A DNA stretch of 64,000 nucleotides from a virus. A model generated the notes under the pieces. It made no database searches and was not told the origin of the DNA. It saw only the letters and a list, made by a program, of their open reading frames with translations. Position 1 is the first letter of the stretch, and each line of letters begins with the position of its first letter. Made by a program: the position numbers and the translations under genes. This document shows positions 1,871 through 59,012 of this stretch, one piece after another. The stretch is taken from positions 24,615-88,614 of the IMG/VR virus record IMGVR_UViG_3300021437_000012. One strand, 5' to 3'.

Positions 1871-3539
1871 GACTCCCGATCCGGCGCAGAATCTTGCGGA
1901 TGCGCTCAACAATCTTGCTACCGTCACTAAGGCGGTAAGCACGCAACCCACCCCTAACGCGACTCCTGCCGAGCAGAAGCCCGTTTCGACCGAAACCAAA
2001 GTCGAGCAGACTCCGGTTCAGGCGTTCAAGTCGTATCTCAATCTCGCAAATCAGCAGCTTGATTTGGCTACTTCGGAAGCCGATAAGGCTGCAATTCGTG
2101 CGGGGTTGAATGACACTCTTACGAAGATCGACGCCGACGTTAAAAAAATGCCGGTGGGTGACTACGTTAAGAAAACCGAATGGGGCGTTGAGGAAGCGAA
2201 GAACTACCTTGCTGAAATTGGGGGCATCCCGAAGACGGAAGTGAAGGGTATTTTTTCAAACCTCGGGGCACAACGTACTGCATCCGCAGATTCGTGGCGT
2301 GCTCAGTTCGGCAACCGTACTCCCCTTGACGTTCTTTTCAAGGGTGCGATGATCCCTGACACTTCCGGTCCTTACGAGAAGGCTAAGCCTCTTATCGTTA
2401 AGGATGACATGCTGGAGCGTGCGCGCGATCTGCACGATCAGGTTTTCGTGTGGATGCTACACAAGCAGGCGCAGAACGGCGGCATGGGTGTTGACCCGCG
2501 TACACAGTGCCGCATTTGGCCTGAGTACGCAAAGGCGATGGAGTACGTTGGTAAGGCGCTGGATACCACCGACACTGCTAACTGGGTGCCGACTGGGTTC
2601 ACGACTGACTTACTCGCTCGCTACGATCTTGATCGTAACGTTAGCCGTCAACTGCGTACTTTCCAACAGCCCCGCAACCCCTTTGATTATCCCGTCATGG
2701 GGGCGCGCACGACCACGTACAAAATCAGTGAACAGACTGCGGATATTGAGTCGGCTACGGCTGTCACGACTTCTGACATGACGCCGCTGAAAATCACGTT
2801 AACACTCGCTTCTCTCGGCGCTCGCACGTCTTGGAGCTACGAGTTAGACGAGGATTCGATCATCGCAATCGCTACTGAGGCCCGCAATCAGTTGGGAATC
2901 TCGATGGCGTACTCGGAAGAAGACGCGCTTATCAATGGTGATACCACGGGTACTCACCAGGATGCGGACGTTACTTCTTCGAGCGATATCCGCAAAATCT
3001 GGAAGGGTTTTCGTAAGTACGCGATTCAGCAGTCGTACACCACGGACGGTTCCGCGAAGGTCGTTGAGACGCTGACCGGAATGATCAAGTCGATGGGTAA
3101 GTACGGCGCGCGTCCTGCGGATCTTTTCTGGGTTTGCGCTCCTGGGCTGCGAGCGGACTTCTTGTCCCTTAAGGACACCAACAACAATCCTGTAATGATC
3201 GGCCTTCCTGTCATGGGCGCGGGTAACAGCCCGATGGTCATGACGTTGGCTGATGTGCCACTTCTTCTCGGATTGCCGTTGGTCGTTTCTGAGGCTTTCC
3301 GCTCGGACTTGAACGCGTCGGGCGTTTTCGACAACACTACCACGTCTAAGACGGGTCTTTTGCTCGTCAACCGCAAGGGTTGGATCTATAGCTACTCGAA
3401 TGAGCAGCCGCTTATCGAGTCGCAGCGTTGGATTCGCACCCGGCAGATCGAGATCGTTGCTTCGATGCGGCGTGCGTTCAACCCGATCTTCGCCATTGCA
3501 TCGAACAAGACGGTTTGGTACGATTACAACATGGCCTAA
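1854..3539 (+). CDS. Major capsid protein (HK97 fold) with N-terminal scaffold-like region
   Basis: 561 aa; WVPTGFTTDL...ELDEDS...EEDALINGD pattern; follows the protease and is followed by a terminator. Confidence 0.85.
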   Translation: MADELKTPDPAQNLADALNNLATVTKAVSTQPTPNATPAEQKPVSTETKVEQTPVQAFKSYLNLANQQLDLATSEADKAAIRAGLNDTLTKIDADVKKMPVGDYVKKTEWGVEEAKNYLAEIGGIPKTEVKGIFSNLGAQRTASADSWRAQFGNRTPLDVLFKGAMIPDTSGPYEKAKPLIVKDDMLERARDLHDQVFVWMLHKQAQNGGMGVDPRTQCRIWPEYAKAMEYVGKALDTTDTANWVPTGFTTDLLARYDLDRNVSRQLRTFQQPRNPFDYPVMGARTTTYKISEQTADIESATAVTTSDMTPLKITLTLASLGARTSWSYELDEDSIIAIATEARNQLGISMAYSEEDALINGDTTGTHQDADVTSSSDIRKIWKGFRKYAIQQSYTTDGSAKVVETLTGMIKSMGKYGARPADLFWVCAPGLRADFLSLKDTNNNPVMIGLPVMGAGNSPMVMTLADVPLLLGLPLVVSEAFRSDLNASGVFDNTTTSKTGLLLVNRKGWIYSYSNEQPLIESQRWIRTRQIEIVASMRRAFNPIFAIASNKTVWYDYNMA

Positions 3540-3569
3540 GTCTTCCTCCTGGACTTAGAGCTTGCACGG

Positions 3570-3604
3570 CGGCGCGCTGAAGTAACTAAGGCGCGCCGTT
3601 TTTA
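3570..3604 (+). terminator. Intrinsic terminator after capsid gene
   Basis: CGGCGCGC/GCGCGCCG stem followed by T-tract. Confidence 0.7.
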
Positions 3605-3813: not shown

Positions 3814-3834
3814 GCTGTGGGCTCCTTTCATCGG

Positions 3835-3863
3835 TTGACAACTGAGTTATGCAGGAGTATAGT
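3835..3863 (+). promoter_or_regulatory. Sigma70-type promoter for glycan island
   Basis: TTGACA-17 nt-TATAGT. Confidence 0.75.
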
Positions 3864-10345: not shown

Positions 10346-10968
10346 ATTGGATTGAGCGGCTGTACGAGATTAAGAACAAAGATCTGTATTCACAGAACGG
10401 AGAAGGACTGTTATTAGAACACATCTCTAATGCGTTAGGCTTTAACACTGGAACTATTGATGATATCGGCGGCGGGGATGGCTTGTATCTTAGTAATAGT
10501 AGGCATTTACAAAATCTAGGGTGGGACAGATACGTTATAGACCGCGAACGTGGACAAACTGTTACAGTAGAGAATATTCTTGATATACCATTATTTTTGT
10601 TTGAACGAAATACGGCTACAGTACTGTCTATTGATATTGACGGCAATGACTACTGGATACTTGATACAATCTTGCAACATCGTAAGCCGTCCATCATCGT
10701 TGCTGAGTTTAATGCTACATATACTAACTCTCGTACTATCGCGTATAATCCTGATCATGTATGGGCAGGGGATAGCTATTACGGATTTACTTTTGCCGCT
10801 GGGTGCAAACTTGCTGAACGATTCGGATACCGTGTTATTTTTCAAGTCGCAAATATGAACATGATCATGGTACGTAGCGAATTAGTAACAGTGCGTGTAC
10901 CTTCAATTACAGTCAAGCAAAATCACTATTTCAAAATGTCTGATCGCACTGATTGGGTAGACGTATGA
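10342..10968 (+). CDS. Putative methyltransferase (FkbM-related)
   Basis: YSQNGE, LSIDIDGNDYWI, IVAEFN. Confidence 0.65.
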   Translation: MNWIERLYEIKNKDLYSQNGEGLLLEHISNALGFNTGTIDDIGGGDGLYLSNSRHLQNLGWDRYVIDRERGQTVTVENILDIPLFLFERNTATVLSIDIDGNDYWILDTILQHRKPSIIVAEFNATYTNSRTIAYNPDHVWAGDSYYGFTFAAGCKLAERFGYRVIFQVANMNMIMVRSELVTVRVPSITVKQNHYFKMSDRTDWVDV

Positions 10969-14439: not shown

Positions 14440-14468
14440 TTGACATGTTTATAGACTCCTGGTATAGT
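14440..14468 (+). promoter_or_regulatory. Sigma70-type promoter
   Basis: TTGACA-17 nt-(TG)TATAGT. Confidence 0.75.
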
Positions 14469-16447: not shown

Positions 16448-17423
16448 ATTAAAGTGTGTAGTTCTTGCAAATAAGCAGTATGAAACCTATATGTCCAACG
16501 AAGGTTGGCAGTTACAGGAGGGATTGCAGTTAGCAGGGTGGAAACTACGTGGTTATGGGTATGAAGATAATTCGGTTGACGTGCAAAGCATTATAGATCA
16601 AGACCATCCTGATGTAGTGATGATTCAAGATGTACGGGATTGGGCTAATGGGGATTCTCCCGTTAAATTCTGTAATACACAAATCTTAAGAGAACACAGC
16701 AGTATCTTCAAAGTGATGGTACTAAAAGACCCTTGGTATTGTTCAGATTTTCAATCTATGTACATGGGATTGATGGGTGTTAAGGCGTGTGTGGTTTATT
16801 ACCAGCAAGATACAGTACGCCAACATACTACATGGCTACCACAAAATATGTCACTTATTCGTACATACCATAGCGTTGATCCAACACAAGCGGCTAATGC
16901 GTATAATGTCAATTTACGTAGAGAAGATGGTTTAGTTTCTGGGACTTTGGAGCCGTATGAAACCTATCCCATGCGTAACTGGTTTGTGCGTAATTGTGCT
17001 GAATTAGATTTACGTGTACTACCTCATCCGCAGTATTACGTACAAGCCAAATCAGCAACTAACGCCTATCTACGTATTCTTAGTCAATTTAAAGTACATG
17101 TAGCTACTGCTAGTATTTACCAATGTGCGTTACGTAAGATAATCGAGTCAATTGCAACTGGGTGCATTCCAATCACAAATTTATCTAGTAATGATAAATT
17201 GCCTATGATTGATTCTGCTATTTGGCGCGCCCGATTTGATCAAGATGTGTATAGAATGCACAATGTACTACAATTGGCTAAAGAAAACTGGCGTAAAGAC
17301 CGTGCACTTCACTACGCACGTCTTGCATGGGAACACTATTCTTACATAAATCAAGGTAGACTTTTGTCCGAAGAAATTAAGAGGCAATACTATGCGCATT
17401 TTCGGCATCGTAACGTGTGTTGA
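16440..17423 (+). CDS. Putative GT-B glycosyltransferase
   Basis: HSVDP, Y..ILSQFKV..RKIIESIATGCIPITN (CgeB/Glyco_trans_1_2-like C-terminus). Confidence 0.55.
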   Translation: MPELKCVVLANKQYETYMSNEGWQLQEGLQLAGWKLRGYGYEDNSVDVQSIIDQDHPDVVMIQDVRDWANGDSPVKFCNTQILREHSSIFKVMVLKDPWYCSDFQSMYMGLMGVKACVVYYQQDTVRQHTTWLPQNMSLIRTYHSVDPTQAANAYNVNLRREDGLVSGTLEPYETYPMRNWFVRNCAELDLRVLPHPQYYVQAKSATNAYLRILSQFKVHVATASIYQCALRKIIESIATGCIPITNLSSNDKLPMIDSAIWRARFDQDVYRMHNVLQLAKENWRKDRALHYARLAWEHYSYINQGRLLSEEIKRQYYAHFRHRNVC

Positions 17424-18072
17424 CTATTCTGGTTTTCTTGAAAAGAGTTTATCTATATGGCAAGCAGGACTAGATAAGTTGGTCGTGGTAACTTCGCAAG
17501 AAGATAACCGCACTCAGCAACTTTTAGATTCTCCTGAATATTCGCAAGTTATCTTGCATCCTACTAATGCGTTTTGGCAAGACGGTGCATTATTCAACAA
17601 AGCTGCGGCTCTAGAAGAAGCTTATATAACACTGCGAACTTCAGCGGATGAATGGGTTTTATTTTTTGATGCTGATGTTATTCCACCTACTGGGTGGCGG
17701 CAGGATATTGAAGAAATTGGACAACTTGAATTGGGTTGCATATATGGTGCTATTCGTCGTACTGAAGACTATAGGCTGATACGTGATACGGAACTAGCTG
17801 GATTTTTTCAGCTATGGCATCGTCGTGATCCTGTTGTTCAGACTTTGCCATTATTAGGTTCATGGCATAATGCTTCTGGTTACGATTCTGCATTTGCCAC
17901 TCGGTGGCCTAAAACTAACCAACGTTGTGCACCAATTAGCTTAATACACCAAGGAAACGTCGGTAGAAATTGGTGCGGGGTAGGCCATGATTCTGACATG
18001 GGCGAAGTTTTTGCAAATCGACGACACAAAGGCGGATTTCTTCACGAGCGACTGGACAATATAGGGCGTTAG
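17392..18072 (+). CDS. Putative GT-A glycosyltransferase
   Basis: TCVDYSGFL, FNKAAA, WVLFFDADV, GFFQLW. Confidence 0.65.
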   Translation: MRIFGIVTCVDYSGFLEKSLSIWQAGLDKLVVVTSQEDNRTQQLLDSPEYSQVILHPTNAFWQDGALFNKAAALEEAYITLRTSADEWVLFFDADVIPPTGWRQDIEEIGQLELGCIYGAIRRTEDYRLIRDTELAGFFQLWHRRDPVVQTLPLLGSWHNASGYDSAFATRWPKTNQRCAPISLIHQGNVGRNWCGVGHDSDMGEVFANRRHKGGFLHERLDNIGR

Positions 18073-18081
18073 TGGTACACT
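18053..18081 (+). promoter_or_regulatory. Sigma70-type promoter (extended -10)
   Basis: TGGACA-17 nt-(TG)TACACT. Confidence 0.55.
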
Positions 18082-18086
18082 TAAAT

Positions 18087-18180
18087 TGCCTAGATCCTCT
18101 AGGCACGTCAGTTTCTCCTCTGTATAGGTGCATCGTCGTACCCATTAACTCGGACCCACTATGACGATGCACCGTTTTTT
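18087..18180 (+). ncRNA. Candidate small regulatory RNA with anti-SD seed
   Basis: 5' hairpin TGCCTAGA/TCTAGGCA, single-stranded CGTCAGTTTCTCCTCTGTATA, 3' terminator; promoter-like sequence upstream. Confidence 0.5.
18127..18180 (+). terminator. Intrinsic terminator
   Basis: GGTGCATCGTCGTA/TATGACGATGCACC 14-bp stem (one G-U) plus TTTTTT. Confidence 0.7.
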
Positions 18181-18186
18181 CAATAA

Positions 18187-18813
18187 ATGAACTACGATAC
18201 AGCACTCATAACTAGCGAAGACTTCAAATCGTACTATGGTATATTGTCTTCATCTACAGGATCAGATAGCTTAATAGCTCTATTAATAGAAAAGTGCTCT
18301 TCGCTTATAAGTGAATTTTGTGAACGAAAATTTCAGTCTGCTAGCTATACTGAATATTTCGATGGTAGAGGTAAATCTGATTTATTTGTAACGCACTACC
18401 CAATTGCAAGCCCGTTGTCTGCGACTACTGGTGGTGGTTTGTGGGATGACCCTCAGCGTACTTATTCTGATTCGTATAAGTTGACAGAGGATGTAGGCCA
18501 GGGCACTGGTGATTTTGTTGTATACCCTTCGGAAGAAGGTCAAGGCAAAATATCACGTATCAACGGTGTTTTTTACGTAGGGCGTCGAAATATAAAAATA
18601 ACGTACACTGGTGGGTATACGCAAATACCTAGACAAATTCAACTTGCTTGTTTTCGTATGGTTAGTAATGAGTACCAAAAAACACAAAAAGATACCTTTG
18701 GGCAAAGTTCTCAATCAATCCACCGAGATTCAACTACTTATATAGCACCTAAAGATGTACCTCTTGATATTCGGGAAATGTTAGAACGCTGGAGAAAGTG
18801 GTCGTTTAGATGA
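18187..18813 (+). CDS. Head-tail connector/adaptor protein
   Basis: LI...SSLISEFCER...YTEYFDG...IKITYTGGY..IP..IQLAC; position. Confidence 0.75.
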   Translation: MNYDTALITSEDFKSYYGILSSSTGSDSLIALLIEKCSSLISEFCERKFQSASYTEYFDGRGKSDLFVTHYPIASPLSATTGGGLWDDPQRTYSDSYKLTEDVGQGTGDFVVYPSEEGQGKISRINGVFYVGRRNIKITYTGGYTQIPRQIQLACFRMVSNEYQKTQKDTFGQSSQSIHRDSTTYIAPKDVPLDIREMLERWRKWSFR

Positions 18814-44874: not shown

Positions 44875-44914
44875 AAATAAAAAATGCCCGCCCTCAAGCA
44901 TTTTGAGGGCGGGC
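44875..44914 (-). terminator. Terminator between convergent late and early operons
   Basis: GCCCGCCCTCAA/TTGAGGGCGGGC 12-bp stem with an A-tract on the left (U-tract on minus). Confidence 0.8.
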
Positions 44915-44936
44915 GAAGAGAAGGGAGAAACTTCGA

Positions 44937-46496
44937 CTAATCGACAACCACTGTGACAGTCCCGGATTTTCCATTACCGGGAGTATTTGACGGATGTGTT
45001 TGTGACTTTTGGTTTTGTTCGCGCCGCATACCGTTGAACTTTTCCATTACTCCGGTCATGACTGACGCGAACCCAGCGCCTCCTGCCTGTGCAACGTTCA
45101 TCAACATTTCTTCCATAGTAGGTTGATGAGGTGGCGTCTGTTGGTGAATTGTTAGTTCAGTGTGCATGGAGTCGATGGTATCAAGTAGCACAGACTTGGT
45201 GATCTTGATTGGTTCCCCCGATTCTCCTACCGATATTGCGGTTAACTTCGACCGTTCCACCACTTCTCGTATCGCAGCCGGTATCACCCCCGCGAGGCGT
45301 TCGCCTACCTCGAATAGATTTTCATTCGGAGATAGGAGTTCTCTTGCGTAGATGCGGACTAACCGTTGTGCTGCTTCCGCGTCCGGTGGTTGCATTTGTA
45401 TGATTGCGTCCATACGACCAGGACGCAACATTGCAGGATTGATGTTACCGAGCGCGTTGGTGGTCAGAATTACCATGATGTTTTTGTCTTTAGAGTCCGC
45501 ACCATCAATGATGTTAAGAATAGCGTCTACGTGGTCCGTTCTGTCCATTTTGATCACACGGTCGATGTCTTCGCAGAAAACCACCACCCCACGTTCTTTG
45601 GTGGCGAACTTCGCAGCGAACTTCATCGCATCTTCGAGTTCTACCGCTTTGTCTACAAGCAAGAACATCCAGCCTGCCTGTACTGCCTTAGCAGCCGCGA
45701 CTGTTCCTGCAAGTGTCTTACCTGTGCCGTAAGTACCAGCAAGCAGTACGCCCCTTTTCACGGGGATGCCGTTGTCCTGGCAGTCTTTAGTACGTATGAT
45801 AGGCGTTACGATATTAGTACGAATTGCAGTTTCGATGCCCTTCGGGTATACCCATTCCTTTTCCATGTTCGGGTTTGTTGTTAGAAAGGTGATATCAGGG
45901 ACTTGTAGCTTAACCCCGTCAAGACTGTAGAAGTTGATCCGCATTGCTTGCCCGTGATAGATGGAGTGTGTCTTTGCGTACTTCTCGATCTCCTCGATTA
46001 GCGTGTTGATCTTTTTGCGGTATTTGCCTAGCGAGTGAATGGTTAACTCGTAAGCAGCGAGTCCGTTCACTGAAGTTATGTTGGAGTGTACGCAAGCATG
46101 CAACTGCTCAATACCGAACGTACCCCACGGTATGTCCGTTTTACCATTAGGTGTCTGCACTGGGATTACCTGAGCACCGTAGAATCCCGGTATTATGATG
46201 TTATTTCCACTCGTCGCACCACGTTGATGGGCGAAACCGAATGTTTTCTGTACTACTTCCTTCACTGCGATGCACCCATCCCACGGCATAACATCAATAG
46301 TACGGCTTATCTCGATCCTTTCTTCGTCCAACTCCTGTTGACGTTGAAGCGCTAAAATCACAGCGCTCACTTCGGCGTCTTCAGGGATTGTCAATGTAGT
46401 CCCGCATGCGATTGTGATTTGATCAGGATCGACGATCTTCTTCTTCTTTGCACCTTGCGGTGCGTTCTTCATCAACTGCTCGAAATGCTGTGCCAT
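44937..46496 (-). CDS. AAA+ ATPase (FtsH/CDC48-like AAA domain, no protease domain)
   Basis: RGVLLAGTYGTGKT, VVFCEDID, LTTN..INPAMLRPGRMD. Confidence 0.9.
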   Translation of the reverse strand: MAQHFEQLMKNAPQGAKKKKIVDPDQITIACGTTLTIPEDAEVSAVILALQRQQELDEERIEISRTIDVMPWDGCIAVKEVVQKTFGFAHQRGATSGNNIIIPGFYGAQVIPVQTPNGKTDIPWGTFGIEQLHACVHSNITSVNGLAAYELTIHSLGKYRKKINTLIEEIEKYAKTHSIYHGQAMRINFYSLDGVKLQVPDITFLTTNPNMEKEWVYPKGIETAIRTNIVTPIIRTKDCQDNGIPVKRGVLLAGTYGTGKTLAGTVAAAKAVQAGWMFLLVDKAVELEDAMKFAAKFATKERGVVVFCEDIDRVIKMDRTDHVDAILNIIDGADSKDKNIMVILTTNALGNINPAMLRPGRMDAIIQMQPPDAEAAQRLVRIYARELLSPNENLFEVGERLAGVIPAAIREVVERSKLTAISVGESGEPIKITKSVLLDTIDSMHTELTIHQQTPPHQPTMEEMLMNVAQAGGAGFASVMTGVMEKFNGMRREQNQKSQTHPSNTPGNGKSGTVTVVVD

Positions 46497-46511
46497 TGTC
46501 AGTTTCTCCGT

Positions 46512-46587
46512 TGGTGCGCCCGGCCGGACTTGAACCGGCGACCTTGAGCTTAAAAGGCTCCTGCTCTACCTTCTGAGCTACGAGCGC
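46512..46587 (-). tRNA. tRNA-Lys(UUU)
   Basis: Cloverleaf: GCGCTCG acceptor, anticodon loop CTTTTAA, T loop TTCAAGT, encoded CCA; 76 nt. Confidence 0.92.
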
Positions 46588-46696: not shown

Positions 46697-47020
46697 TTAC
46701 CCTTTCTTTGGTTTCCAAGCTACTTCATGATCGAAAATGTGAGCCATCGCTACAATCTCGAAAGTACCATCCGTATGTATTCTAAACGAAATAGAGCAGT
46801 TGCGCATTACTGGTGATTTCGCAATAAACGGACCAACTACCGGTCTAAGCTCCTGCGCGGCTTTACCCAGTGCTTTTTGGTGCGTCTGGATCGATTGATA
46901 ATGTTCTGTGTCGTCTGAATCTTTTTTTGCGCGCGGGCCTTCTTGTTCTCTTTCGGCCTCCCTAATCGCCTTAGCACTTATGCCTAAACTCTTAAGTAGT
47001 GCGCGTTGAGTGTCGTCCAT
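46697..47020 (-). CDS. Hypothetical protein, paralog of 48519-48953
   Basis: HQKAL..A.ELR..N.S....DG.FEIVA. Confidence 0.6.
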   Translation of the reverse strand: MDDTQRALLKSLGISAKAIREAEREQEGPRAKKDSDDTEHYQSIQTHQKALGKAAQELRPVVGPFIAKSPVMRNCSISFRIHTDGTFEIVAMAHIFDHEVAWKPKKG

Positions 47021-47301
47021 TACCTAAGATCCTCTAGTACTATTGTGGCGCCGATTAGACGATCCCGTGTCTTTTTGTCAACTTCGTTCGCCGCCATCGT
47101 CAGCAAACGCTTACTGATTTCTGCGACGCAACTATGGGACTCAGTACGAATCTTCTTTAATGCCTTGACGACTTTAGTTGATTTTTTTTTCGCTTGTGGG
47201 TGGTCAGGGTCATTCCACCGAGCTTTGATTGCTTTATGTGATTGTAATGACCGCGCAGAATCAAAACTCGTTGGGCAGTGTTCACAAGTGAACTTTTTCA
47301 T
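47020..47301 (-). CDS. C2H2-like zinc-finger protein
   Basis: FTCEHC..SF.....L.SH. Confidence 0.55.
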   Translation of the reverse strand: MKKFTCEHCPTSFDSARSLQSHKAIKARWNDPDHPQAKKKSTKVVKALKKIRTESHSCVAEISKRLLTMAANEVDKKTRDRLIGATIVLEDLR

Positions 47302-47537
47302 TACCGTGCCTTCCGCGGAATATGTCGCTCTGCACGACCAATTAACTCGTTATGCCTATTGATGTACTCTTTAAAATACCGTACACCATGACCCTTCTTA
47401 GTATGGTATTTCTCCCACGCTCGATGTTTAACGCAAAAGTCGGATTTCTTACTTGCGGCGTCGCGCTCGCATCCTGGCATTTGACATGATGGTAGCGGAC
47501 TTGGGTCCGGTGTCTCTAACTGTCCCTGAACTTTCAT
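47301..47537 (-). CDS. Small Zn-binding hypothetical protein
   Basis: C..PGC...FC.KH; AGGAGAAAC RBS. Confidence 0.55.
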   Translation of the reverse strand: MKVQGQLETPDPSPLPSCQMPGCERDAASKKSDFCVKHRAWEKYHTKKGHGVRYFKEYINRHNELIGRAERHIPRKAR

Positions 47538-47663
47538 TTAGTTTCTCCTGCTTTTCGTTATGTATTTCGTTACTGTGACTTGTCAATTCAACTAACGAAT
47601 CAAATGCGACGGCAGGTGTACAAACACCACAAGCATATGGTGCCGGTAAATCAACTTTCTTTT

Positions 47664-48002
47664 TCATCGACTTCTCTTTCGTTCAATTTTCATCGACTGT
47701 TTTAGTGAACCAACCGCTTGTCTCATTGACCAATCACATTTGTTACAATGAATATCCATTAAACGCGCGTCTGCATACACCGCAGCTAAATTCTGCGGCG
47801 GCACCCGTACTCCGTATTTCTTCCACCGAAAACCTAGTGCAGTTTCAAAAGTTGGTGCTAACGCCCCTTTACGCCCCCATCCTTTGAATGGTAAGCTTAC
47901 GGATACAATAAGACGGACTTCTAATCGTCCATTGCATCCTGCGGTTCCTCCACCCACTGCGACTTTTCTTTTCTTACGATAATTAGGACAATAGGTAGCC
48001 AT
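47664..48002 (-). CDS. Zn-ribbon hypothetical protein
   Basis: CP..C..CNKC; TAATG coupling. Confidence 0.5.
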   Translation of the reverse strand: MATYCPNYRKKRKVAVGGGTAGCNGRLEVRLIVSVSLPFKGWGRKGALAPTFETALGFRWKKYGVRVPPQNLAAVYADARLMDIHCNKCDWSMRQAVGSLKQSMKIERKRSR

Positions 48003-48532
48003 TAGTGAACATGGGTTGATGTGTTTTGAAGTAAGTTTGCAAAAATTCCTGTGGAAAGACTTGGTTGTGGTACGTGGACAAATTCCTTTAATACTGGTTT
48101 TGTATTCTGTCTGTCAATTTCAGCGTAAATCATTTTAGAGTTAGTTTTAGTTTCTATTTGAATAGTGATAGCTTCTATTCTCCCCTGCACATCTTCGACA
48201 GATGCGGGTATTTCATTTTCATTATCTACTTTCAATATCCAAGATTCAAAAAGTACAGCATAAATTAATGCACCGAAAGTGTGCATTAATTGTCTGGCAT
48301 AATTTGCCCATAGGTATTTATCCTGTGGTACTTCTAACTTAGTTGCAGCAATGGACATTATATGTCTATTGGCGGAAACAATAAACGGACCTATTACAGT
48401 GTAAGCATTAGGACCACTAGGTACCTCGATATCAGTATCAAATACAATCACAGGTTGAATATAACCATCATTCTGATACATATCACGCGCCATAGATACA
48501 ATTGCGTTTTCAAATTCTTCATTCTTCCTCAT
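48002..48532 (-). CDS. Conserved-type phage hypothetical protein
   Basis: ESW...RIEAI pattern; start MRKNEEF. Confidence 0.55.
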   Translation of the reverse strand: MRKNEEFENAIVSMARDMYQNDGYIQPVIVFDTDIEVPSGPNAYTVIGPFIVSANRHIMSIAATKLEVPQDKYLWANYARQLMHTFGALIYAVLFESWILKVDNENEIPASVEDVQGRIEAITIQIETKTNSKMIYAEIDRQNTKPVLKEFVHVPQPSLSTGIFANLLQNTSTHVH

Positions 48533-48953
48533 GTCCAGCTTCTCCCTTCTCTGGCTGGTATGTACTTTGTTCTGAAAAGAGGTTAGAATATGCGATAACT
48601 TCAAACCGACCATCGGGCTTAAACAGCAAAGTAACGGAGGCGTTACTAAAAACACCATCACTATTATACCGAGTAACTAAGGCAGCTAACTCTGCACGAA
48701 ATTCATTCGCGCGATTTAACAACGCAGTCTGATGTGCCGTTATCTCGTCTTGGTGTTGTTTCCATTTTTTATTATTCGCTGTTTGTTCTTTTAACTGACG
48801 CCTGCGTATGTATCTTTCAAACTCAGGGTGCACCCCGGCAAGTTCAGGCTTTTTTACTCGTTTTGATACTGTCTTTTGTATGAGTTTAGGGTCTAGACCC
48901 GCGTTAGTAAGATCGCGGATTAGTTGCTCTAAATCTGGTACTTTGGCATCCAT
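48519..48953 (-). CDS. Hypothetical protein, first gene after promoter
   Basis: GGAGG RBS; paralog of 46697-47020. Confidence 0.65.
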   Translation of the reverse strand: MDAKVPDLEQLIRDLTNAGLDPKLIQKTVSKRVKKPELAGVHPEFERYIRRRQLKEQTANNKKWKQHQDEITAHQTALLNRANEFRAELAALVTRYNSDGVFSNASVTLLFKPDGRFEVIAYSNLFSEQSTYQPEKGEAGHEEE

Positions 48954-50026: not shown

Positions 50027-50110
50027 TGCCGAGGGCGGGAGTCGAACCCGCATGAAGTTACCTTCGACGGATTTTAAGTCCGTTGCCTCTACCAATTGGG
50101 CTACCTCGGC
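50027..50110 (-). tRNA. tRNA-Leu(UAA)
   Basis: GCCGAGG acceptor, ACGGA-CTTAAAA-TCCGT anticodon arm, long variable arm, GGTTCGACTCC; CCA not encoded. Confidence 0.92.
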
Positions 50111-50352: not shown

Positions 50353-50368
50353 TTGTTTCTCCCCTTTG

Positions 50369-50439
50369 TAGCCTGTCTCTTCAGTGCGAGTAGGCCATTT
50401 CTCGCAGACGGCCGCTAAACTACAGCGGCCCGTTTCGAC
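50369..50439 (-). ncRNA. Type II hammerhead ribozyme 1
   Basis: GUC-GAAAC-[stem III GGCCGCU/AGCGGCC]-GUC^-[stem I UGCGAG/CUCGCA]-CUGAAGA-GAC; loop I UGGCCU pairs with the AGGCUA tail. Confidence 0.9.
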
Positions 50440-50441
50440 TG

Positions 50442-51167: not shown

Positions 51168-51184
51168 TTATTGTTTCTCCCTTG

Positions 51185-52685: not shown

Positions 52686-52700
52686 TTTTGTTTCTCCCTG

Positions 52701-53031: not shown

Positions 53032-53046
53032 TTTTGTTTCTCCCTG

Positions 53047-53148: not shown

Positions 53149-53532
53149 TTACTTCTCTGACTTCTTGACTTTCTTCGCCTTGGGCTCCGCACCCTCAGCC
53201 TTCGGCTCGCGCTTCTTGCGCGGACGCGGCGAATGGTAGAACAGCACCCAATCCGATTTCCCCGTGGATTCACCCGTCTCGGGGTCGAAGATTTCGCCGA
53301 AGTTCACCATCAGCGACTTCTCTTCGGTATCGAAGAGGGTTTTGTTCGCGCGAAGGATCGGGAGCAGCGCCTTGCGGGCTTCCTCCTGGAATACGTTGAT
53401 CACGCCGCGCTTGGCTTCCATCTCGGCGTTGAATGCCTGCTTTTCCTGCTTACGCAAGATGTTTTCGATGAACTTCTCATCGAAGCCGGCCGCCTTGAGG
53501 GTTTCCAGAACCTTGTTCTTGTCGATAGCCAT
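53149..53532 (-). CDS. First early protein, with Lys-rich C-terminal tail
   Basis: GGGGAGAAAC RBS; strong G/C third-position codon bias. Confidence 0.7.
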   Translation of the reverse strand: MAIDKNKVLETLKAAGFDEKFIENILRKQEKQAFNAEMEAKRGVINVFQEEARKALLPILRANKTLFDTEEKSLMVNFGEIFDPETGESTGKSDWVLFYHSPRPRKKREPKAEGAEPKAKKVKKSEK

Positions 53533-54303
53533 TGTGTTTCTCCCCACAATGCACGCGGAGATTATCACCGCGCGTCGCCCATTTTCCCAACGGGACGATC
53601 AACCCTTTCTAACTTCCGCATTTGGTTTTAGGTGACGGTTAACGCGGGTAGATACCCCGACCGTGACACTCTACGTTAGAAAGGGTTGACCGTCCCGCGA
53701 TTCACACATGCGACCCTTGGGAGAAAGGTGTCCTCGCCGCACAATGGAATCACGGTTAAATGACGGTTTTGTTTAGTTGTCAAAAGACTCTTTCGAGTCC
53801 TACAAACCCCGATTAACGGTATCTATCGATCCTTCGGCCATCCCTCACGGTCAGCCGATTTCATATCCAACTTCCGGCCTCGTTTACTTCTTGAGTTACG
53901 TATCTAATGTCGATCCCCGTAGGGTACTCTCATCCTGATACGTATCCGGGTCTATCGTTGGATTACGGATCTCCCTTGTCCCGTGTTACTGTCGGGGTGT
54001 TTGATGAGCGAGTAGACTATACTCGCTCATCTTACTGGGAATCCCTGATACCCCTGTCCGCGTATCTCGTCTAGTCCTCGTGTCCACTTGGGAGAAGTGA
54101 TTTTTCCGGGGGACGTGATACGGGATGAGATTGTCTCATTAGACTCTATTACTAGAGTCCTAGGACCTCCCAGTCACCCGTCGCATCGCACTCTACCACG
54201 TATCAACTTAACTATAGTAGAGGATCCAACACTCAAGAGTGTTGACGCGACTAGGTTATGTTCAAAGAACTAAGGTCAAGGTGTTTGTACACTTCAACCT
54301 TAC
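53533..54303 (-). ncRNA. Long structured leader / candidate large ncRNA
   Basis: No credible ORF; many hairpins including a 23-bp helix (53591-53613 with 53675-53697); promoter at its 5' end. Confidence 0.65.
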
Positions 54304-58983: not shown

Positions 58984-59012
58984 AGTGTATCATACTTTTA
59001 CTGTATTGTCAA
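58984..59012 (-). promoter_or_regulatory. Sigma70 promoter for replication genes
   Basis: TTGACA-17 nt-(TG)TACACT. Confidence 0.75.

Follow-up and report, generated by a model that had tools for sequence, protein, structure and literature searches.

We describe a short intergenic element, E1, that is a well-supported candidate for an anti-ribosome-binding-site (anti-RBS) small regulatory RNA in an uncultured phage. E1 occupies positions 18053-18180 of the DNA analyzed here, a window of 64,000 nucleotides (nt) that corresponds to bases 24615-88614 of an 88.6-kb phage contig in IMG/VR (record IMGVR_UViG_3300021437_000012). The anatomy of this spacer fits a short transcription unit, as far as sequence can tell, and its linker is complementary to Shine-Dalgarno (SD) regions that recur through a 15-gene operon of the same phage. 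The anatomy, the accessibility of the seed, and a complementarity and placement that go beyond chance are direct observations. The reading that we tentatively prefer is that E1 is a terminator-linked anti-RBS riboregulator, which would exist both as an RNA of ~93 nt and as the 3' end of transcripts from an upstream glycosyltransferase island, and which would act together with two similar elements, E2 and E4, on the GGAGAAAC RBS family.

To our knowledge, few phage RNAs control the translation of the phage's own genes, and those that do, such as c4, sar, and OOP, each act on a single gene. If our preferred reading is true, an uncultured phage would shut down a whole gene class through a shared RBS without a protein such as T4 RegB or RegA, and E1 would represent a compact, programmable translational off-switch. 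Since the targets lie directly behind self-cleaving ribozyme-like repeats and tRNAs, such a system would also link RNA processing to translational control.

Anatomy and folding of E1

The E1 site lies in the 114-nt gap between the open reading frame (ORF) 17392-18072 and gene 18187-18813, inside a 62-kb block of plus-strand genes. ORF 17392-18072 is the last gene of the upstream glycosyltransferase island, and its product of 226 amino acids (aa) is GT-A glycosyltransferase-like, modelled over its full length (residues 1-226). Gene 18187-18813 encodes a head completion or head-tail adaptor protein, with a tail tube gene and other structural genes further on. An earlier, sequence-only reading of this DNA had described a TGGACA-17-TACACT promoter-like site followed by a 5' hairpin, a linker, and a terminator, and all of these parts were found where it had placed them:

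18053-18081, plus strand: promoter-like site, with -35 TGGACA (18053-18058), a 17-nt spacer, and extended -10 TGgTACACT (18073-18081); from sequence and a promoter position weight matrix (PWM)
18087-18105, plus strand: 5' hairpin, a perfect palindrome in the DNA, with 8 base pairs (bp) and a UCC loop, at the predicted 5' end of the transcript; from folding
18106-18126, plus strand: anti-RBS linker CGUCAGUUUCUCCUCUGUAUA; from folding, pairing, and an unbiased scan
18127-18180, plus strand: intrinsic terminator, with a 14-bp stem (18127-18140/18160-18173), a 19-nt loop, and -21.2 kcal/mol, then G and U6 (18175-18180); from folding

The terminator is the second strongest in the genome. Folding of the whole spacer gave -35 kcal/mol (z = -4.9), and none of 200 shuffles was as stable. 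The segment that the sequence-only reading had taken to be unpaired, GUCAGUUUCUCCUCUGUA (18107-18124), lies inside the linker, where a weak mini-stem of 3 bp (CAG 18109-18111 with CUG 18120-18122) exposes the loop UUUCUCCU at 18112-18119. In the folded 93-nt RNA (18088-18180), this loop is at least 98% unpaired and opening the seed costs ~1.4 kcal/mol, which bears out the earlier description. When the leader was inspected by eye for alternative pairings of an antiterminator type, none was convincing.

Complementarity of E1 to the RBSs of one operon

The sequences that E1 could pair with are on the minus strand, in an operon that spans 44.9-53.6 kb:

46498-46509, minus strand: RBS of the AAA ATPase gene, GGAGAAACUGAC, a 12-nt exact complement of E1; exact match
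47540-47549, minus strand: RBS of gene 47301-47537, AGGAGAAACU, complementary over 10 nt to E1 and over 9 nt to E2; exact match
47027-47037, minus strand: possible target, RBS of gene 46697-47020, CUAGAGGAUCU, an 11-nt complement of the E1 5' hairpin; exact match
50355-50363, 51173-51183, 52690-52699, 53036-53045, and 53536-53544, minus strand: five more RBS copies of (G)GGAGAAAC, four of them directly behind hammerhead-like repeats

The 12-nt and 10-nt pairings had been proposed in the sequence-only reading and are exact. The 8 pairs that it placed before 50352 and 53532 are likewise present, at 50355-50362 and 53536-53543, and further 8-nt complements of E1 are found at 51173-51180, 52690-52697, and 53036-53043. 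About 13 pairs had also been claimed for the leaders behind hammerheads 2-4. This is correct for hammerheads 3 and 4, whose leaders form 13 pairs with E1 with one bulged U, but the leader behind hammerhead 2 pairs less well. Counted on both DNA strands, the E1 8-mer occurs 10 times versus 1.45 expected. The complement of the E1 5' hairpin, CTAGAGGATCT, recurs at the RBS region of gene 46697-47020, a match that is weak when taken alone, with at least 2 matches in 14 of 100 shuffles.

The extension of the pairing beyond the anti-SD core had been singled out as the informative part of the complementarity. We compared E1 with composition-matched controls in which the CTCC or TCTCCTC core was kept and the E1 flanks were shuffled. 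When accessibility was not considered, none of 150 flank shuffles matched either the summed energy of E1 or its number of strong targets. With target accessibility included, the 7 best of 122 start regions for the E1 linker were all in the 15-gene operon, the operon genes scored lower than all others (Mann-Whitney p = 6e-5), and none of 100 flank shuffles equalled this. E1 thus clearly surpasses shuffled anti-SD controls in its complementarity to the RBS family of the early operon. When exact-match criteria were applied (one 12-mer, two 10-mers, and six 8-mers), 3 loci were found genome-wide on both strands, and E1 was the only one on a transcribed strand.

Related elements elsewhere in the window

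An unbiased anti-RBS scan of 2,971 non-coding sense windows ranked E2 first, E1 second, and E4 third. The features concerned, together with the hairpin E3, are as follows:

44879-44936, minus strand: E2, a mini-hairpin GAAG/CUUC with loop UUUCUCC (44934-44920), then UCUUC, a 12-bp GC-rich terminator, and U6; from folding and the unbiased scan
48540-48552, minus strand: E2 target AGAGAAGGGAGAA, probable RBS of ATG 48532, a 13-nt complement; from exact match and the accessibility scan
53715-53728, minus strand: E4, a UCUCCC loop closed by a CCUU/AAGG mini-hairpin, within the long 5' leader of the target operon; from the unbiased scan
3536-3603, plus strand: E3, a 7-bp hairpin with the anti-SD loop UUCCUCCUG (3543-3551) that spans the stop codon of the capsid gene, then an intrinsic terminator (3567-3603); from folding

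E2 lies in the 3' untranslated region (UTR) of the AAA ATPase gene, beginning 3 nt past its TAG stop codon (44937-44939). Its sequence GAAG-UUUCUCC-CUUC-UCUUC (44934-44915) stands immediately before the strongest terminator of the genome (-24.7 kcal/mol). E1 and E2 have the 9-mer AGUUUCUCC in common, while their terminator stems are unrelated. GUUUCUCC has two sense-strand copies, each of them 8-16 nt ahead of one of the two strongest terminators in the genome, and we estimate the chance of finding both copies within 16 nt of these terminators at <1e-3, considering intergenic placement only. UUUCUCC itself occurs on the sense strand 4 times in 6.35 kb of non-coding sequence (~0.4 expected, an estimate) versus once in 82 kb of coding sequence, a ~10-fold enrichment in non-coding RNA.

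E2 is complementary to nine RBSs of its own operon, over 13, 11, 11, 10, and 10 nt and over 9 nt in four cases. The SD of the gene to which it belongs, the AAA ATPase, is among them, with a 9-nt match. E4 is complementary to GGGAGAAA, the RBS of the first gene of the operon, and may be a cis anti-SD element. The loop of E3 is the canonical anti-SD core, and its target specificity is weak, with 7 nt or less to any RBS. The presence of E2 in the 3'UTR of the target operon and of a similar loop, E4, in its 5' leader suggests a wider cis/trans anti-RBS system rather than the single late small RNA of the sequence-only reading; the element is not unique, and late expression was an assumption of that reading.

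Two side observations concern these elements. The gene listed as 48002-48661 more likely begins at ATG 48532, behind the RBS GGGAGAAGCUGGAC, with the ATG overlapping the stop codon of the upstream ORF (48519-48552, minus strand). E3 has a 12-nt complement within a coding region (53379-53390, minus strand).

A promoter family in the phage

The phage contains a promoter family of the form TTGACA-N14-TGnTAnAnT, with 6 perfect copies genome-wide versus 0.06 expected. Copies with at least 5 of 6 positions in the -35 number 10, versus 0.76 expected. In a core PWM built on the -35 and the extended -10 only, the 18053 site was the best site outside the training set (19.0 bits), while the top score among 5 shuffled genomes was 14.9 bits. 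The predicted transcription start near G18088 coincides with the base of the 5' hairpin. This makes it plausible that 18053-18081 is a promoter. The site shares its host sigma-70-like class with putative early-gene promoters, e.g., those at 58992 and 48988 (minus strand).

Proposed mechanism

From these observations we infer promoter use, a discrete RNA, repression of the targets, and the timing of that repression. A host-type RNA polymerase would start near 18088 from the extended -10 promoter and would mostly stop at the U6 terminator, yielding an RNA of ~93 nt, and the same E1 module would form the 3' end of transcripts arriving from the upstream glycosyltransferase island. The weakly closed short loop, with its flanks, would be exposed between the 5' hairpin and the terminator and could pair with the (G)GGAGAAAC(U) SD regions of the 44.9-53.6 kb operon. 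Ribosomes would be kept from binding by such pairing, which could also create double-stranded sites for cleavage. Since E2 is in the 3'UTR of the operon and E4 in its 5' leader, damping by the operon's own RNA probably adds to that by E1.

We found no promoter other than the 18053 site for the head-tail genes from 18187 onward, so every model would require an E1 terminator that is leaky or subject to antitermination. The short RNA could accordingly be the by-product of a gate or of a leaky attenuator. A more elaborate version of our reading, which we consider quite unlikely, is an RNA-only control circuit in which E4 in the leader, E2 in the 3'UTR, and the ~93-nt E1 RNA at the entry to the tail genes would throttle the translation of the whole operon through the GGAGAAAC RBSs as these RNAs accumulate. 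Pairing of E1 might then affect read-through into the tail genes, and the circuit would serve as a transcript-counting early-to-late timer.

The proposed target operon and its hammerhead-like repeats

The 15 genes of the target operon include those for a helicase, an HD hydrolase, and the AAA ATPase, and the operon also carries two tRNAs and hammerhead-like repeats. The tRNA genes are at 46515-46587 and 50027-50110 (minus strand). A long variable arm is seen in one of these tRNAs. The other has the anticodon UUU (Lys) and an encoded CCA end and lies directly before the SD of the AAA ATPase gene. The RBS at 46498-46509 is directly behind the CCA end encoded by the tRNA gene 46515-46587.

The sequence-only reading had paired its small RNA with ribozymes in a combined switch. 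The core motifs of hammerheads are visible by eye in the repeats of the window, but only one of the four, 50367-50440, matches Rfam Hammerhead_II, and it does so with 33.9 bits, where the gathering score is 37. The ribozyme part of that switch thus depends on hammerheads that pass Rfam only in part.

The same ribozyme 3' tail, matched by the pattern CUGAnGAGAYAGGCUACA, was found in 17 other viral contigs in IMG/VR (L004-L020), ~13 of which have a type II hammerhead core by eye. In most, an SD and an ATG follow the 3' tail within ~8-30 nt, and several of the contigs reuse an RBS leader of 12-14 nt (AAGACAGGAGAA...) on many genes. The terminators found in the 17 contigs, too few to judge generality, all lack an anti-RBS tract. 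In one contig, L019, the sequence UCCCUCCGU at 10856-10900 is the complement of the post-hammerhead RBS of that contig, ACGGAGGGA, and immediately precedes a terminator-like hairpin. The case is isolated, and chance alone would be expected to give a 9-mer match there.

Evidence against the proposed riboregulator and alternative explanations

Several results weigh against a riboregulator. With respect to the promoter, the 18053 site scores 9/12 by the generic sigma-70 consensus, which is noise level and commoner in shuffles, and it mismatches one otherwise invariant position of the -35. When spacer columns are added to the PWM the site falls to rank 18, again noise level, in a full-length matrix that is overfitted to 7 sequences. 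Since the site belongs to the same class as the putative early promoters, neither an early-to-late switch nor late-only expression follows from it.

With respect to the targets, a purine-rich RBS family matches any CU-rich tract to some degree. Of the seven early targets proposed in the sequence-only reading, four are near-identical repeated leaders that amount to roughly one independent match, which leaves about four independent matches rather than seven. In raw duplex energy E1 is unremarkable against 479 natural CTCC-containing 22-mers, 26-44% of which are as good, in a control that is confounded by GC content; GC-rich segments dominate its ranking, and we therefore prefer the composition-matched shuffles and the exact-match scans. 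Among the hammerhead contigs that reuse long RBS leaders, no obvious anti-RBS partner was found, so a trans regulator cannot be deduced simply from a long RBS that many genes share.

With respect to conservation, megablast and blastn searches against phages returned no relative with the 18053-18180 junction, and for the head completion protein, the tube protein, and the AAA ATPase nothing close was found in IMG/VR or in metagenome contigs. Finally, an attenuator would agree just as well with the large 19-nt loop of the terminator and with the read-through that is required.

The main alternative, which we regard as almost as likely as our preferred reading, is an ordinary operon-boundary terminator. 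In this case the terminator would end or attenuate transcription of the glycosyltransferase island (from promoters near 3835 and 14460), the promoter-like site would be unused, and the CU-rich tract would have no function in trans, its match to the RBSs being a product of composition and luck. The terminator is indeed strong and is situated at a module boundary, between the GT-A-like gene and the head completion gene. The generic and full-length promoter scores, the frequency with which natural CTCC 22-mers reach equal duplex energies, and the lack of conservation support for E1, for which no relatives were found, are all consistent with this explanation, as are the ~51 loci genome-wide that hold a 12-nt complement to some start region. 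It does not account for the failure of composition-matched shuffles to reach the targeting of E1 (0/150 and 0/100), nor for the recurrence of the AGUUUCUCC 9-mer before the other of the two strongest terminators, the stem of which is unrelated. The enrichment of UUUCUCC in non-coding sense RNA, the rank of E1 and E2 as the top two loci of the unbiased scan, and a core promoter score above that of all shuffled genomes argue against it as well.

In an alternative that we consider unlikely, E1 would be a promoter-proximal terminator and control entry into the head-tail operon much as lambda PR'-tR' does with its 6S RNA. The 18053 promoter would then drive the 26-kb structural module, transcription would stop after ~93 nt except where resistance is conferred by a factor of the phage or by an RNA element, and the short RNA would be a by-product whose CU-rich loop may bind an antitermination factor. 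The order of promoter (18053-18081), terminator (18127-18180), and ATG 18187 agrees with such a gate. The head completion gene begins 7 nt past the U-tract of the terminator, in an A/U-rich stretch and without an SD, and it has no other promoter. From 18187 to the terminator at 44884 there is no sense-strand terminator of comparable strength, and phages frequently make short 5'UTR transcripts that end at a terminator (PMC10914365).

A gate of this kind would leave the match between the loop and the early RBSs unexplained, along with the position of the twin E2, at the 3' end of a different, minus-strand operon, and the head genes upstream would need a separate system. A Q-like antiterminator directly upstream was ruled out, because the 226-aa protein encoded there is GT-A-like and has no Pfam or PHROG antiterminator match; a scan of 19 proteins returned no match to an antiterminator family.

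It is highly unlikely, in our view, that the CU-rich loops of E1-E4 are sites for a phage or host RNA-binding protein involved in termination, stability, or processing, or an 8-9-bp double-stranded DNA motif read either way, with the RBS complementarity incidental. Four small hairpins do present similar pyrimidine loops in non-coding RNA, and counted over both DNA strands the motif is more frequent than expected (10 versus 1.45), but 8 of these 10 copies are already accounted for by RBS function. Through their flanks, E1 and E2 are each complementary to a different individual RBS (over 12 nt and 13 nt), which would be needless for a shared protein site, and no candidate binding protein was identified.

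We see next to no chance that the minus strand carries a real RBS (AGAGGAGAAACUGAC, then GUG at 18106) of a 56-aa antisense ORF (17936-18106) or its remnant, with the likeness to the early RBSs due to homology and not complementarity: this strand does read GGAGAAACUGAC-GUG with 8-nt spacing and an open frame of 56 codons, but the ORF was rejected because it overlaps 137 nt of a plus-strand gene with a GT-A fold modelled over residues 1-226 and has no minus-strand promoter nearby, and in addition the order of the two RBS-like pieces does not follow that of the early operon and the site is within the 62-kb plus-strand gene block.

Comparison with known regulatory systems

The riboregulator that we propose shares features with several known systems. 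In the c4 RNA of phages P1 and P7, complements presented in loops pair with the ant RBS and block translation of the phage's own genes (PMC12197685). Like c4, E1 is phage-encoded and carries short loop complements directed at an RBS, and c4 derives from the operon of its target, as E2 does. In contrast to c4, which acts on one antirepressor gene, E1 matches an RBS family in a lytic-type early operon and is encoded ~28 kb from its targets on the other strand. Neither its sequence nor its structure matches Rfam: no family reached its gathering score anywhere in the window except at two tRNAs, and the best hit in 17900-18300 was TarA with 17 bits (E = 2.1). At the level of sequence E1 is a member of no described RNA family.

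Short terminated 5'UTR RNAs and 3'UTR-derived noncoding RNAs (ncRNAs) were found to be common in Pseudomonas phages by ONT-cappable-seq (PMC10914365), and DicF is derived from the 3' end of an operon (PMC12197685). E1 and E2 resemble DicF and the ncRNA1 and ncRNA2 of PAK_P3 in having the seed just upstream of an operon's intrinsic terminator, a setting in which a 3' fragment acts or accumulates as a small RNA (PMC12197685, PMC10914365). DicF differs in that it targets host ftsZ, whereas E1 and E2 match phage RBSs and E1 may have a promoter of its own.

In Gram-positive bacteria, the icaR 3'UTR and the UCCC loops of RNAIII and RsaE present pyrimidine anti-SD motifs in loops or 3'UTRs that pair with SD regions. 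E2 recalls these cases in that a 9-nt pairing with the SD of the mRNA that carries it is possible; the organisms differ, and so does the motif (UUUCUCC versus UCCC). At lambda PR'-tR', a sigma-70-type promoter is followed by a short terminated 6S RNA and a long structural operon that needs read-through by Q. The arrangement of E1 is alike, with a promoter-like site, a predicted short terminated RNA, and then a structural operon. It differs in that no Q-like gene was found here, the upstream neighbor being glycosyltransferase-like, and in that no anti-RBS seed is known from the lambda 6S RNA.

T4 RegB and RegA act on the shared SD and start regions of early mRNAs (PMC3014915). The likeness of E1 to them is one of functional analogy, in that early mRNAs would be inactivated through shared start regions. 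The T4 regulators are proteins, a GGAG-cutting endonuclease and a translational repressor, while an RNA complement is proposed here. If real, E1 would be unusual in targeting multiple genes through a shared RBS and in having a twin inside the target operon.

Source DNA, protein relatives, and neighboring features

Up to 44870 the genes of the window are on the plus strand, and from 44937 on they are on the minus strand. Only two freshwater DNA metagenomes carry the DNA of the window letter for letter, with 0 variants, and no RNA run is among the listed holders. The head completion protein has a single homologue (31%) among 5.8 billion proteins. Homologues of the AAA ATPase with ~40% identity are found in named phages of enterobacteria, Pseudomonas, and Erwinia, which are too distant for RNA comparison.

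Two candidates were set aside. An exact 18-mer match in IMG/VR (L002), which extends to 21 nt, was attributed to chance, as it lies within a 777-aa ORF of an unrelated contig. A 30-aa plus-strand ORF at 18072-18164 was rejected because an open frame of this length has a ~24% probability by chance and its start is upstream of the predicted transcript start.

Further promoter-like sequences were seen in the glycosyltransferase island. A copy of the phage promoter family at 14440-14468 (plus strand) ends ~10 nt before ATG 14479, inside the island, and a distance this short implies a nearly leaderless mRNA. At 3832-3863 (plus strand), TTGACA and TATAGT are separated by an 18-nt spacer and overlap the annotated ATG 3849. 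This may be the promoter of the glycosyltransferase island, and if so the true start of the first island gene is further downstream.

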